From NCBI GenBank assembly GCA_016699245.1, contig CP064968.1, positions 704,317 through 768,316 of the forward strand: DNA of 64,000 nt, given 5' to 3'. A program made the position numbers and the translations under genes. The stretch's first letter is position 1. Each line of letters begins with the position of its first letter. Positions 1,330 through 46,511 of this stretch are shown here, piece after piece. Source of the DNA: Candidatus Kaiserbacteria bacterium (lineage in GTDB: Bacteria > Patescibacteriota > Minisyncoccia > Phycocordibacterales > UBA918). The notes below the pieces were generated by a model, which saw nothing but the letters and a program-made list of their open reading frames with translations, made no database searches and was not told where the DNA came from.

Positions 1330-1947
1330 CTATGCTTTTATGCAACTCATTACCCAATTATCCTCATTACTACCCGCAGTATAGGCCTGGTAGTACCCCG
1401 CTGGGCAACTAACATTAGGTGTATGACCATTGCAGGGGAAATTTGGATAAAGTGAACCATAAGTACTCCAAGCTCCACACTGTGTTCCAGGAAGAACAGC
1501 ACTAGTACTTACTGCATCATCAATCTGACTCACCCACTTCCCAGAACTTCGAATATACACGTCATTGGTGTAAATAGATGCTCTTGAGTTTTGCTTTTGG
1601 GCATTAGGATCCCATCCAGCACCATAGGTAGTAAGTGCCCAATCATCGGTCACTGAGTAATTTCGAACCGAACTAGTAATTGCACCGTACGTATTCAGTG
1701 CATTAACTATACTCGTAGAATTTGGGTCTATATAGTAACCTGAGTTATTATAATCGGAAAATGTTGTAGCCCCAATCGAACCTGCTTTCGACTGTGCAGT
1801 TGCACTCACATTAATTGGCGCGGCAACATTTGAAGTTGGCGGAGCACCTGTAGGAGCTGTCCACGCAAAGGTAACCTGCAATGCACCCATAGTAAAGGCA
1901 CCGAGTGCGATACCGAGGAAAACAAAAGAGAAGTTTTTGTATGACAT
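1330..1947 (-). CDS. Secreted/anchored Gly/Ser/Thr/Tyr-rich protein, paralog of 45332..46333
   Basis: 205-aa ORF with signal anchor FVFLGIALGAFTMGAL. Motif AWTAPTGAPPTSNVAAPINV...QSKAGSIGAT is shared with 45332..46333. Confidence 0.6.
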   Translation of the reverse strand: MSYKNFSFVFLGIALGAFTMGALQVTFAWTAPTGAPPTSNVAAPINVSATAQSKAGSIGATTFSDYNNSGYYIDPNSTSIVNALNTYGAITSSVRNYSVTDDWALTTYGAGWDPNAQKQNSRASIYTNDVYIRSSGKWVSQIDDAVSTSAVLPGTQCGAWSTYGSLYPNFPCNGHTPNVSCPAGYYQAYTAGSNEDNWVMSCIKA

Positions 1948-8545: not shown

Positions 8546-8569
8546 GTATCTTCTGAGTAATAAGACTAA

Positions 8570-10010
8570 CTACGTCTCCTGCCCATACCCCTGCACTTCC
8601 ACCTTGACTGATTGATCAACAATCGGACAATCTATGGTGAATGTGGTGTTCACGCTGACGAAATATGATTGTGACCCAAGGCCTGTGGTTGACGGTACCC
8701 AGGGCATGCTATTTCTAGTGATGGCACAATTAATTTCCATGCCGGTACCCCATTCAACGAGTACGTCTTTCCCACTACTTGGCACCCTGCGTGGGTCTGC
8801 CTTGATGAAGGGTTCTGTATTCACATCAACTACTTTACTATCGAGGAGTCCTGGATACGGTGCGCAGGTGAGTGAGTACGTGGTGTCACTTGTGAGGGAT
8901 GAGGATAGTTCTGAGCCTGATGTCCCACCCCATGTATCTACACCACCAGTGACTTTTTGTTGGTGTACATCCACCTGTGGGTGTAATAGACCAATCGATA
9001 GTTGATTTTGTGTCGTATGCAATTGGAGAAGTGACCGTGAGGTTACCGGTTGGCTTTGGATGTACGGTGAAGCTTTTCTCCATGCAGTTGTTGGGTATTC
9101 CCGGAGGATCATCAGGTTCAACAATATCTCTGTTTGAATCGACACAATACTGAATATACAAGGTACCAGACCCACTCAGGTCTAGCGTAGCGATGTCTTG
9201 ACCAATTTCGTTTACGTCAAAACCTGCAGGGTGATCGGTATATGGAGTGATATCGATCCATGTACCAGTGACATTCCAGCGGTATGAGAAGTTGTTTTTA
9301 AAGGCATTGGGAGTAGGGATGACTCCTATATTTGTCATAGTCCCGTCTAAGACAACGATTTGTCCATCAAAGAATACGTTTCCTACTGAGGGGACGGTGG
9401 CGGTAAAGCCGATGGGTTTGAGGTCAGCATCATTTTGGATACAAGCGTAACCACTTCCTGTTACACCGTAAGGAGTACCATTTGTTGCTACTCCTGCAAA
9501 ACTTATCCACCCAACGACGGTAGACCCCCACGCATAGCCACTCCATGCACACCCTGTTGCAGTAACACCGTAATCAGGACCTGTGCCTGATAAACTAATC
9601 CACCCATCCCAACCTCCTGAATTAGCAGTTCCTCCCGCAAGCGCTTTAGCCCAACCTGTTACCACGCCAGTTGTACTATTAAAAAATGGTGCACAGGTAC
9701 CTGCACCTGAAGGACACCCCGACGTTTCATTGAAACTTATCCATCCTATATATTCACTCCATGCATATCCTGAAAGCGCACCATTGCTTGCAGCAGTAAC
9801 CCCATATGGTGACGTTCCGCATGATCCTGTATCAGTACAATTAAATGAAATCCATCCCATGGTTTCACTCCATGCATATCCTGAAAGATAATCAGATGCA
9901 CTTGATTCAGCATTCGGTACACGCATGCTGAATAAAGTTCCCACCACAATACCTATCAGCACGAGTGCATACGCGAGTAGATGCTTTGACTGTACTAAAT
10001 TGCTATTCAT
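8570..10010 (-). pseudogene. Large secreted surface protein with tandem GYAWSE.IGWISF repeats, split by a frameshift at a T5/A5 run (~8954-8958)
   Basis: ORFs 8886..10010 and 8570..9175 overlap in different frames. Joining them at ccaacaAAAAAgtcact gives a continuous, plausible ...GGCTPTK|VTGGVDTWGG... sequence. Signal peptide at the N-terminus. Confidence 0.55.
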
Positions 10011-10169
10011 GTAAATAATTGTTGTAGTTTTACTTAGTAATGTACATTAGTGTGTGAGCACGGGAACAAGTGGCAAAAATTAAAAGAGTTCTATAAAATA
10101 ATTATAGTAATGCCAATATATATATTGTACATCTTTGTTTGAATAGAAAACAAGAAAACGGTGGGTATA

Positions 10170-10200
10170 AAAAACCGCACGCCGTAGGCGTGCGGTTTTT
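10170..10200 (-). terminator. Intrinsic terminator after secY
   Basis: aaaaaccgcacgccgtaggcgtgcggttttt. Confidence 0.75.
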
Positions 10201-18327: not shown

Positions 18328-18635
18328 AACTCAAAAAGCGCGTGAACGCATAATAAGGTTGCTCTTACCAATAAAATGGCCTAATATAGCCACTTTGGTG
18401 AGAACCTCGTGTAACAACAGGTAACGGCCAGTGCTAAACGAAGTACCCACAAATGTGTATGTTGCATCACCCACCAGGGTGCATACACATGGGAGTTCTG
18501 AACGAGGGCTATAGTACGCGAAAGCCTGTTGAATGTCAAATGTATGTACGTATTATGAACGACATCGTAAGTCGCTCATAATCTCTCAAAACTAATGCGC
18601 TGTTTATAATAGTTGTTTAGTATAGATTTATGAAC

Positions 18636-18670
18636 ACAAAACCCCGCGCCGGAGGTGCGGGGTTTTGTTG
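18636..18670 (-). terminator. Intrinsic terminator immediately after rplB
   Basis: aaaaccccgcgccggaggtgcggggtttt. About 300 nt of noncoding sequence follow before rpsS. Confidence 0.65.
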
Positions 18671-18685
18671 ATTTCTCTGAAAATA

Positions 18686-21561: not shown

Positions 21562-21903
21562 TTATCGGAAAAGAAGAATTTTAATATTTTCACTTACTTC
21601 CTCAATAACTTCCGTAGAAACTTTTTGTATGAAACGAACTTTTCGACTTTTCCAATCCAAATTGCGCATTTGGTCGGAAAGCACTACACCGTCAACTTTC
21701 TCTTCGCTGAGCGGAACTTCATACGAATACCCCTTTATGCGTGAAGTTATGGCACAAGCAACCATAAGATTTGTCCTTTCATTATATTTTATTGGAGAAA
21801 GAACGAGCACTGGTCTAAGATTCGCCTGTTCGTGTCCTCTCGTGGGACTCAAGTCAATCCACACAACATCACCTTTGTCGGGGACATATTTCTCTTTTAC
21901 CAT
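21562..21903 (-). CDS. mazF: Type II toxin MazF/PemK family endoribonuclease
   Basis: YVPDKGDVVWIDLSPTRGHEQANLRPVLVLSP...KGYSYEV...VVLSDQMRNLDW closely parallels E. coli MazF. Confidence 0.9.
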   Translation of the reverse strand: MVKEKYVPDKGDVVWIDLSPTRGHEQANLRPVLVLSPIKYNERTNLMVACAITSRIKGYSYEVPLSEEKVDGVVLSDQMRNLDWKSRKVRFIQKVSTEVIEEVSENIKILLFR

Positions 21904-22139
21904 ATTTCGTTACCCACTGGCTTACCCCAATCCACCTCTTCGTGAAGATTTTCTTTTGTTATACCTTTAAGCATATCGTCAAGAGTACGACGCTCCCTCT
22001 TCACAACTTCAATGGAAATCCCTGTTTTTGTTTCTGTTACCAAAACACGACTCCCTGCTTTTAAAGATTTGCTCATAGCAATACTCTTTGGCAGACGAAC
22101 TCCGAGACTATTCCCCCATTTTTGAATATTAGTTTCCAT
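21897..22139 (-). CDS. mazE: Type II antitoxin MazE (AbrB/SpoVT fold)
   Basis: ATG at 22139 gives METNIQKWGNSLGVRLP...ITKENLHEEVDWGKPVGNEIW, parallel to the E. coli MazE C-terminus. Overlaps mazF by 7 nt. Confidence 0.9.
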   Translation of the reverse strand: METNIQKWGNSLGVRLPKSIAMSKSLKAGSRVLVTETKTGISIEVVKRERRTLDDMLKGITKENLHEEVDWGKPVGNEIW

Positions 22140-22145
22140 ATGTTG

Positions 22146-22170
22146 AAAGTATATACTATGTATATACTTT
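22146..22170. promoter_or_regulatory. Perfect palindrome AAAGTATATAC-TAT-GTATATACTTT 7 nt upstream of the mazE start: putative MazE/MazF operator
   Basis: 11-bp arms seen directly. E. coli mazEF is autoregulated through a promoter palindrome. Confidence 0.5.
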
Positions 22171-22276
22171 TGCAATACTCGTTGTTCCCCAACGCCACGA
22201 GGCGCACTGCAACAAGATCGTGAAGGTGAATCTATTACGTACCCCAGACACGTGACTTTCTTTGCCTAACAAATAC

Positions 22277-24908: not shown

Positions 24909-25480
24909 ATGCAACAACTTCTAGAAATAGCCCGAAATGCGGCCCACGAGGCAAGTGAGGCAGTAATCGCCATGCGCGAGGGGGTCACTCATGAAATAAA
25001 AGGGGATGGCTCTCCCGTGACCGCGGCTGATACGCGCGCGCACGACATCATCATGGAACATCTTACTCCCACGGATATTATGATTCTTTCTGAGGAATCT
25101 AACGGTGTTCCTATGCCCTATCCTGAATATCTCTGGGTCATCGACCCTATCGATGGCACCAAGGATTATATGAAAGGAAGCACTGACTTCTGCGTTATGA
25201 TTGCGCTTCTTCAGAATGGCAAACCACTACTCGGCGTTGTGGATGCACCCGCACTCAATACTGTTTTCTCGGTGACTTTTATTTCACCCAAGGAGGGCTT
25301 GGTGAATGGGATGTCTGCGCACCTGAAATTATCTTTCGTGAAGCAGGAGGTGTCGTGAGCGACTGTCTTGGAAACGACATTGCATACGGTAATCCAGAAC
25401 ACCGAATTCCTCATGGCGTACTCTTTGCGCAAAAAAATTGTTATGACGAGGTGCTCAGTGCAGTGAAAATGACAGCATAG
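24909..25480 (+). pseudogene. Inositol monophosphatase/CysQ-family gene with ~75-codon internal deletion and frameshift
   Basis: N-terminal part (frame 1, to ~25268) matches SuhB through ...LWVIDPIDGT...VVDAPALNTVF. The C-terminal part ...DFYFTQGGLGEWDVCAPEIIFREAGGVVSD... is in another frame (to the TAG at 25478-25480). The middle of the fold is missing. Confidence 0.55.
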
Positions 25481-25572
25481 TATGCAACAAAAACATGCAT
25501 ACTCCTAAAAATATGCTATTGTACCTACAGAGAAAGCCCTAGATTCCTAGTGCTACGGACAAGGAGTTTGAC

Positions 25573-45331: not shown

Positions 45332-46333
45332 TTACTCTATGACATCTAATATAACAACACCGTCACGTCCTACGTCTGAATTTGTACATGTACCCACATA
45401 GCTAGCGGTTGTATGACATCCGCTACGGAACACACTACCTCCAGAACCATATCCGAATGGGGTTGTGCCGCCTGGATAAATGCCTGAGGATACAGCCCAC
45501 TGAATTGGACCTCTATTTCCAATTCCATACAAACTTGGACCACAAGCACCAGGACCATTTCCTGCCACAAATGAACCTGTAGCAACCCTGTTTGGTGATG
45601 AATATGCTGGCGTACCACCTCCTACTATTGCGCCGTCCACATGACCAGCAACAGTATAAATACCGCCCAGGTACGTATCCACGCCCCCGACGTATGCACC
45701 ACTCCCCCCTGAACACTCAAGTAATGTACCGCTCACACTTGAGGTAATCTTCGATGAAGATCCGGGATAACCACCAAGACCATCATCATCGCTTGGGTAT
45801 GTGTATATATAATAAGGTGCTCCACGGTCTGCGAGGACTCCAGTATTAACCACCGCACTACCCCTACCACCTCTTCCGACCTGAATATGAATTGTCTCTC
45901 CTGGTGTGAGCGAAATTGGATGTGAAAATACATACCCCCCTGAATGACCGGCAAAAACCGCGTTCACTACTCTCCACCCAACACCACTCCCTCCTCCACC
46001 TGCCATTGTCACCTCTGCACTAGTCACATTTGAAGGCACTACCCAATCTTGAGTAGACGTAAAGACGATTCGTCTTTTATTGATTGCTCTATTATCAACA
46101 TAATCCTTCGTCACCAGTGTCGTGCCTACATCTAAAGCAACTGTTGATGCGGTATTTATTTTACCTACTTTTGTTTGACTATCTGGCCCCACATTAATAG
46201 GCGCAGAAACATTTTGTGATGTTGGGTCTGGTGGTGGTGGCGTCCAAGGACCAGTCCATGCTGATACGACAGTAACGACAAGTGCTAAGGAGACAACGGT
46301 GGTTAGTGTATAGCGAAGGAGTGCTTTATTCAT
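45332..46333 (-). CDS. Secreted Gly-rich protein, paralog of 1330..1947
   Basis: ATG at 46333 (MNKALLRYTLTTVVSLALVVTVVSAWTGPWTPPPPDPTSQNVSAPINV...). The ORF extends to 46450. Confidence 0.6.
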   Translation of the reverse strand: MNKALLRYTLTTVVSLALVVTVVSAWTGPWTPPPPDPTSQNVSAPINVGPDSQTKVGKINTASTVALDVGTTLVTKDYVDNRAINKRRIVFTSTQDWVVPSNVTSAEVTMAGGGGSGVGWRVVNAVFAGHSGGYVFSHPISLTPGETIHIQVGRGGRGSAVVNTGVLADRGAPYYIYTYPSDDDGLGGYPGSSSKITSSVSGTLLECSGGSGAYVGGVDTYLGGIYTVAGHVDGAIVGGGTPAYSSPNRVATGSFVAGNGPGACGPSLYGIGNRGPIQWAVSSGIYPGGTTPFGYGSGGSVFRSGCHTTASYVGTCTNSDVGRDGVVILDVIE

Positions 46334-46511
46334 ATATGGTGGAGTGTGTCTAATGTTAATTAACCCAATATTACTGATAAGTGTAACCCCCCCCCCGCAC
46401 ATGGAGGCAATATGAAGAAGTGGGATAGCGCGTGTAACGGTACTAACCATTCTCTATATTACGCAGTTAATAATTGCTACACCCTCATTTTAATTTTCTT
46501 TTTTCTATTTT

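Follow-up and report, generated by a model that had tools for sequence, protein, structure and literature searches.

A predicted exported Trp-rich protein gene broken at an A5 run in a Patescibacteria genome assembly

The two overlapping reading frames between positions 8570 and 10010 on the minus strand of the window (the whole 64,000-nucleotide stretch of DNA analysed here) represent one gene, not two, whose ancestral open reading frame was intact, and the part of this gene downstream of the frame break has been under selection. In the mechanism that we propose, one surplus base in an ordinary A run, and not a programmed shift, would break a single gene of 479 codons. The product would consist of a hydrophobic helix, a Trp-rich domain of four beta-hairpin units and three Ig-like sandwiches, the last of them the conserved C-terminal one. 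If the surplus base is a consensus error, the organism would make this protein at full length.

One gene interrupted at an A5 run

On the minus strand, ORF A (10010..8886) encodes 374 amino acids, and the +1 frame carries on to 8570; the latter, frame B, is open from 9175 to its stop codon and overlaps ORF A. The break is defined by three features:

8886..10010, minus strand: ORF A, the 374-aa GenBank product QQR64608.1 (IPH92_03535, Candidatus Kaiserbacteria)
8954..8958, minus strand: A5 run (T5 on the plus strand) with the +1 frame change, located by translation, ortholog alignment and codon usage
8570..8572, minus strand: stop codon of the restored gene, in frame B

The preliminary description placed a switch between these two ORFs at about 8954-8958, and the placement is borne out both by codon usage and by comparison with the closest relative (protein P0002, locus L001). 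In a codon-usage score derived from the window's long ORFs, frame A is preferred down to about 9100 and frame B from about 9020 on, the change of preference being put between about 9020 and 8930, and the indel is confined to 7 nt that hold the A5 run, reading ACAAAAA in the window and AGA in L001 between the identical flanks TGTACACCA and GTCACTGG (window TGT ACA CCA ACAAAAA GTC ACT GGT; L001 TGT ACA CCA AGA GTC ACT GGT). At the protein level the same junction is ...CTPTK-VTGGVDTWGG... in the restored protein and ...CTPR-VTGANGDTWSG... in the ortholog. The A5 at 8958-8954, located 73% of the way into the ORF, is the sole homopolymer at the junction. The shift is +1, corresponding to one surplus base or two missing ones, and removing one A (or adding two) produces a single ORF, which is 479 aa long when one A is taken away. 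Residues 1-352 of QQR64608.1 are authentic, while its last 22 residues (SHWWCRYMGWDIRLRTILIPHK) are out-of-frame read-through. The GenBank entry of 374 aa is a truncated call, the real product, past or present, being ~479 aa long.

Over its whole length, the restored protein is colinear with four full-length relatives of 462-473 aa, namely P0002 (473 aa, with 69-71% identity and 100% coverage in a database search), P0005 (464 aa), P0006 (465 aa) and P0008 (462 aa). These four are true orthologs that share the same secY...adk/map locus, as synteny confirms: in L002/L034 and in L005 the gene adjoins the same two cytidylate-kinase-like genes as well as adk and map, and lies 3' of S8-L6-L18-S5-L15-secY, as in the window. 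All seven aligned orthologs are single ORFs through the break site, and the annotated 374-aa product reaches 78% of the ortholog length. The colinearity of the restored ORF with intact, syntenic orthologs upholds the earlier proposal of one Trp-rich exported repeat protein broken at the A5 run; the attribute 'large' that went with this proposal does not suit a product of 479 aa. A pair of separate genes was also considered and rejected, as no credible start or signal peptide is encoded in frame B close to the junction and the 70 upstream codons of this frame lack homology.

Relative to L001, dN/dS is 0.25 upstream of the shift, 0.35 downstream and 0.28 overall. The 127 codons past the shift contain no stop and retain the invariant Cys and Thr residues as well as the C-terminal motif, and neither the relaxed constraint nor the additional lesions past the break that would mark a recent pseudogene were found. 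Ortholog comparison, which had been named in advance as a check, thus found the relatives intact and the downstream frame homologous and conserved. An old pseudogene is excluded by the stop-free downstream codons, their dN/dS and the retained invariant residues. The absence of a stop and the dN/dS of 0.35 past the shift together indicate that the break is either an artefact or very recent. Same-species sequence across the site was sought in genome and metagenome contig collections, with no exact-pattern match, and protein-guided scans of both collections yielded nothing closer than 45%. The exact 374-aa product was found only as the NCBI record, P0002/L001 being the closest relative at ~70%.

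A variable island encoding exported proteins splits the conserved S8-L6-L18-S5-L15-secY...adk-map block. Between secY and adk, this island comprises 7 genes in the relative L034 (GCA_964570795.1, 4362-13352) versus only the frameshifted gene in the window (8570-10010). The signals flanking the gene in the window are the following:

10170-10200: secY terminator hairpin, preceding the promoter-like site
10115..10143, minus strand: promoter-like TTCAAA-17-TATATT from a consensus scan, ~105 nt 5' of the start codon
8509..8543, minus strand: hairpin between an A run and a T run, a bidirectional intrinsic terminator, 26 nt past the stop

Promoter-like sites found in the consensus scan are no more frequent than in shuffled sequence. 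Similar hairpins are present at the 3' side of the orthologous genes. A segment of ~68 nt (window 8546-8613, minus strand; L001 1467-1537) that begins 11 codons before the stop and extends 23 nt into the 3' UTR is 100% identical between the window and L001, the 70%-identical ortholog, within flanking coding DNA of ~70-80% identity. This stop-spanning segment was rejected as a regulatory motif, since neither the more distant orthologs nor any other part of the window contains it.

Origin of the frame break

The window is part of CP064968 (1,054,716 bp, circular), the MAG Damh_18-Q3-R51-60_MAXAC.235_fly of Singleton et al. 2021 (PMC8012365; BioProject PRJNA629478). This MAG is a Flye (--nano-raw) reassembly that went through polishing by Racon on Nanopore reads, medaka and Racon on Illumina reads, with coverage of 33.5x Illumina and 32.5x Nanopore and a polymorphic rate of 1.26%. 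The errors that typically remain in Nanopore assemblies of that generation are frameshifting homopolymer indels (PMC9262707). The present case matches this profile in having a Nanopore-built consensus and a one-base homopolymer indel in a gene that is intact elsewhere, and it resembles R9.4.1 Nanopore homopolymer frameshifts, in which a one-base difference splits a gene that is intact in orthologs. It differs from them in the ~33x Illumina polish, in being a lone case among 71 ORFs in 64 kb, in the shortness of the A5 run and in being an insertion. Illumina data at 33x resolve an A5 or A4 easily, and an error that adds a base runs counter to the usual deletion bias of Nanopore data. As the favoured origin of the surplus A, though at no better than even odds, we propose a residual Nanopore/Flye consensus error left after Illumina polishing.

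The 71 intact ORFs of the window (50.9 kb) contain 143 A/T runs of five, 61 of six and 20 of seven as well as one T8, and no frameshift occurs at any of these 225 runs, which indicates that polishing worked well elsewhere. All ribosomal-protein genes in the window are whole. A homology-free codon-usage scan for other frame switches recovered only normal adjacent operon genes, and six-frame translation of gaps >200 nt revealed coding remnants only at an inositol-monophosphatase-like (IMPase-like) gene. The good polishing elsewhere, the decay of this IMPase-like gene and the shrunken island together make a real null allele nearly as likely as an artefact; sequencing error and pseudogene were both among the three causes offered in the preliminary description. 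Under this alternative, which carries a substantial minority of the probability in our estimate, a replication slip added one A and generated a genuine, very recent loss-of-function allele that is fixed or frequent in the sampled population. Its 374-aa truncate, which stops halfway through the second Ig-like domain and has none of the conserved C-terminal module, would probably be non-functional. With 225 error-free runs of at least five in intact ORFs, Illumina reads may well support A5. The window contains another truly decayed gene, and the secY-adk island is variable and reduced here, with one gene compared with seven; in host-dependent bacteria, loss or variation of surface proteins is common. 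However, the 127 codons past the break show no further lesion and a dN/dS of 0.35, so that the event would have to be very young, and the assembly technology is known for exactly such errors. If real, the lesion would reflect ongoing loss of a variable secY/adk surface-protein island in a host-dependent, ultra-small bacterium.

The preliminary description also raised slipped-strand switching, in which a contingency tract that changes length at high frequency would toggle a surface antigen on and off. The gene encodes a putative exported surface protein and is broken in a homopolymer, polymorphism in the MAG population amounts to 1.26%, and a true length of A7 miscalled as A5 would be somewhat more slippery. 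Even so, homopolymers in known contingency loci become hypermutable from about 7-8 or more, and A5 lies below that. The A/T runs in the window number 198 of exactly five, 85 of six, 31 of seven and one of eight, and the tract is merely one of the 198. The closest ortholog, L001, has CCAAGAGTC and no run at the site, all orthologs are plain ORFs, and the position at 73% of the ORF is not near the 5' end, while a G10 at 46387-46396 is a far better candidate tract in the window. We found neither a hypermutable tract length nor a tract of differing lengths among the orthologs. Like the known contingency genes (Neisseria opc/porA poly-C/poly-G, Haemophilus lic/mod and Campylobacter poly-G), this is a surface gene whose frame is set by a mononucleotide run, but unlike in those genes the tract is much shorter, unconserved and situated late in the ORF, and runs of this length occur everywhere in the genome. 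On/off switching is consequently regarded as very improbable at this site, and that part of the preliminary description was set aside.

Recoding, either as a programmed +1 ribosomal frameshift in which tRNA-Lys re-pairs one base on at A AAA AGU or as transcriptional slippage, was judged the most improbable of the explanations, with hardly any weight given to it. If tRNA-Lys slipped by +1 from one AAA onto the overlapping one, translation would yield precisely the ortholog-like ...PTK-VTGG... junction, but the shift is unconserved, every ortholog being a single ORF. The site reads ACA AAA AGU, with a 0-frame A-site codon (AGU, Ser) that is neither a stop nor obviously rare, and the only SD-like sequence, GGTGG, lies 12 nt upstream, as against ~3 nt in prfB-type sites. 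Measured against programmed frameshifts of the prfB/antizyme type, the gene therefore has neither ortholog conservation of the shift nor a slippery codon with a stimulator. RNA-polymerase slippage, in turn, needs about 8-9 or more A/T, far above the five A's present. The break is read as a plain error or lesion and not as a mechanism.

Protein architecture and the N-domain family

An AF2 model of the whole restored protein, computed with orthologs (pLDDT 77.8), predicts a helix, an all-beta region and three beta-sandwiches, with the following features:

9930..10001, minus strand: N-terminal hydrophobic helix, residues 4-27 (AF2), followed by ...VPNAESSASD
9456..9890, minus strand: Trp-rich all-beta N-domain, residues 41-185 (145 aa), with four units of the form (S)GYAWSxxIGWISF...YGVxV
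9884-9840, minus strand: unit 1, SGYAWSETMGWISFN, residues 43-57
9773-9729, minus strand: unit 2, SGYAWSEYIGWISFN, residues 80-94
9659-9585, minus strand: degenerate unit TGWAKAL...GGWDGWISLSG, residues 118-142, between unit 2 and the next unit
9542-9495, minus strand: unit SGYAWGSTVVGWISFA, residues 157-172
9060..9422, minus strand: first beta-sandwich (Ig-like), residues 197-317 (AF2 strands)
8828..9050, minus strand: second beta-sandwich, residues 321-394 of the restored protein (AF2), cut mid-domain by the frame break
8573..8809, minus strand: third, C-terminal beta-sandwich, residues 401-479 (model 401-472), in frame B, ending ...TFTIDCP..VKVEVQGYGQET

The helix at residues 4-27 is predicted to be either a signal peptide or a signal anchor, and the orthologs have the same N-terminus as the window protein. 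On the basis of this hydrophobic N-terminus, the paired conserved Cys residues and the modelled Ig-like domains, we argue for a putative exported surface protein.

The three repeat peptides quoted in the preliminary description are present verbatim in the minus-strand translation, but their number has to be raised from three to four units. The units are 37-39 residues apart and are periodic, not strictly head-to-tail; in the DNA, a 38-nt stretch recurs in units 1 and 2 at 89% identity and a distance of 111 nt. The GYAWS..GWISF motif is nearly invariant across 120 aligned homologs, and this near-invariance, together with 6,157 representatives in the N-domain search, indicates that the motif is not a chance pattern. 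These are representatives of 50%-identity clusters at E<=1e-3 (3,055 at 1e-10), with named sources in Kaiserbacteria, Paceibacteria, Niyogibacteria, Peregrinibacteria and other Patescibacteria. Its usual starting point in family members is around residue 35-45, and some members carry several copies.

Modelled alone with 120 homologs, the N-domain reached a pLDDT of 87.7 and a pTM of 0.84. Foldseek searches with this domain gave a best PDB match of E=0.17 with TM <=0.44, and no match below E=0.1 among viral models. Family assignment likewise returned no Pfam match at E<=1 and no NCBIfam, PHROGs or PDB sequence match, and a literature search for the repeat in Patescibacteria produced nothing relevant. 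The N-domain family is a very common, Patescibacteria-specific exported domain that is unannotated and has no structural analogue.

The N-domain presumably resembles aromatic-rich choline-binding or cell-wall-binding (CW_binding_1) repeats and Listeria GW modules, with which it shares short Gly-Trp/Tyr repeats, here predicted to form beta-hairpins, in a putative exported protein. Unlike those modules, it has no Pfam (E<=1), PDB sequence or fold match, its unit is ~37 aa, not ~20, and its four units form one compact domain. By analogy, the Trp-rich hairpins may bind glycan or cell wall.

Ig-like/CARDB-type beta-sandwiches are indicated both by the fold that AF2 predicts for the last two thirds of the protein and by a Foldseek search with the whole chain, which matched tandem Ig/MG-domain proteins (E 2e-6 to 1e-4). 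The equivalent of the first sandwich is CARDB-like in some homologs, PF07705 being recorded for P0008, P0010 and P0011; the window protein itself has no match to PF07705 (CARDB).

The C-terminal ~80-aa beta-sandwich is common to neighbouring proteins with unrelated N-termini in a relative (the L002 genes ending at 648, 3557, 6395 and 8352). The shared module ends in ...TTFTLTCPxGSDxVTVEVxPKGFET-COOH, with the family motif [FWY]-x-E-x and a penultimate Glu in 96 of 119 homologs, and no Pfam or NCBIfam model corresponds to it. Hypothetically, the module may act as a sorting or anchoring signal specific to the lineage. The type IX secretion CTD (T9SS CTD) of Bacteroidota is similar in that an ~80-aa Ig-like C-terminal module is shared by unrelated exported neighbours. 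The present module differs in having no Por_Secre_tail homology and in its hallmark, a free C-terminal [FWY]-x-E-x, and to our knowledge Patescibacteria have neither T9SS nor an outer membrane. Tentatively, and with rather low confidence, the gene could be placed in an undescribed Patescibacteria surface-protein system that combines a four-hairpin N-domain with the shared [FWY]-x-E-x C-terminal sandwich. The conserved C-terminal end may point to a so far unknown surface-display route in bacteria thought to be attached to other cells.

Other features of the window

The decayed inositol-monophosphatase-family gene lies at 24909-25481 on the plus strand, with PF00459 positions 3-132 and 208-252 encoded in different frames. 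About 75 codons are missing inside the gene, which identifies a real pseudogene-like lesion, not a homopolymer slip. tRNA and Rfam scans of the 64-kb window returned no match. Between rplB (L2) and rpsS (S19), in an otherwise tightly packed operon, there is a 358-nt gap (18328-18685) with no ORF, tRNA or Rfam match. The same ribosomal-protein cluster contains, between rpsJ (S10) and rplC (L3), a mazF/pemK-like toxin (PF02452, E=2e-26) and mazE-like antitoxin (PF04014) pair at 21562-22175 on the minus strand.

A glycine-rich exported protein is encoded at 45332-46333 (minus strand), ~2 kb away from a cluster of type IV pilus genes. Its probable start is the ATG at 46333, and 54-63 nt upstream of this codon lies the ten-base run at 46387-46396 (C10 on the plus strand, G10 on the minus strand). 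This tract is a much better slipped-strand candidate than the A5 run, although its length, too, is uncertain in a Nanopore-based assembly. The protein is a borderline match to Pfam Gly_rich_2 (23.8 bits versus a cut-off of 24.3) and carries an N-terminal '...SAWTGPWTPPPP' motif. In this protein and in the exported proteins encoded at 1330-1947 (minus strand) and L002 4147-4983, an N-terminal hydrophobic segment is followed by 'AWT(A/G)P...PP..N(V)..PI', and the AWT(A/G)P motif, judged from these sequences, has the look of a leader or processing site not yet described for the lineage.
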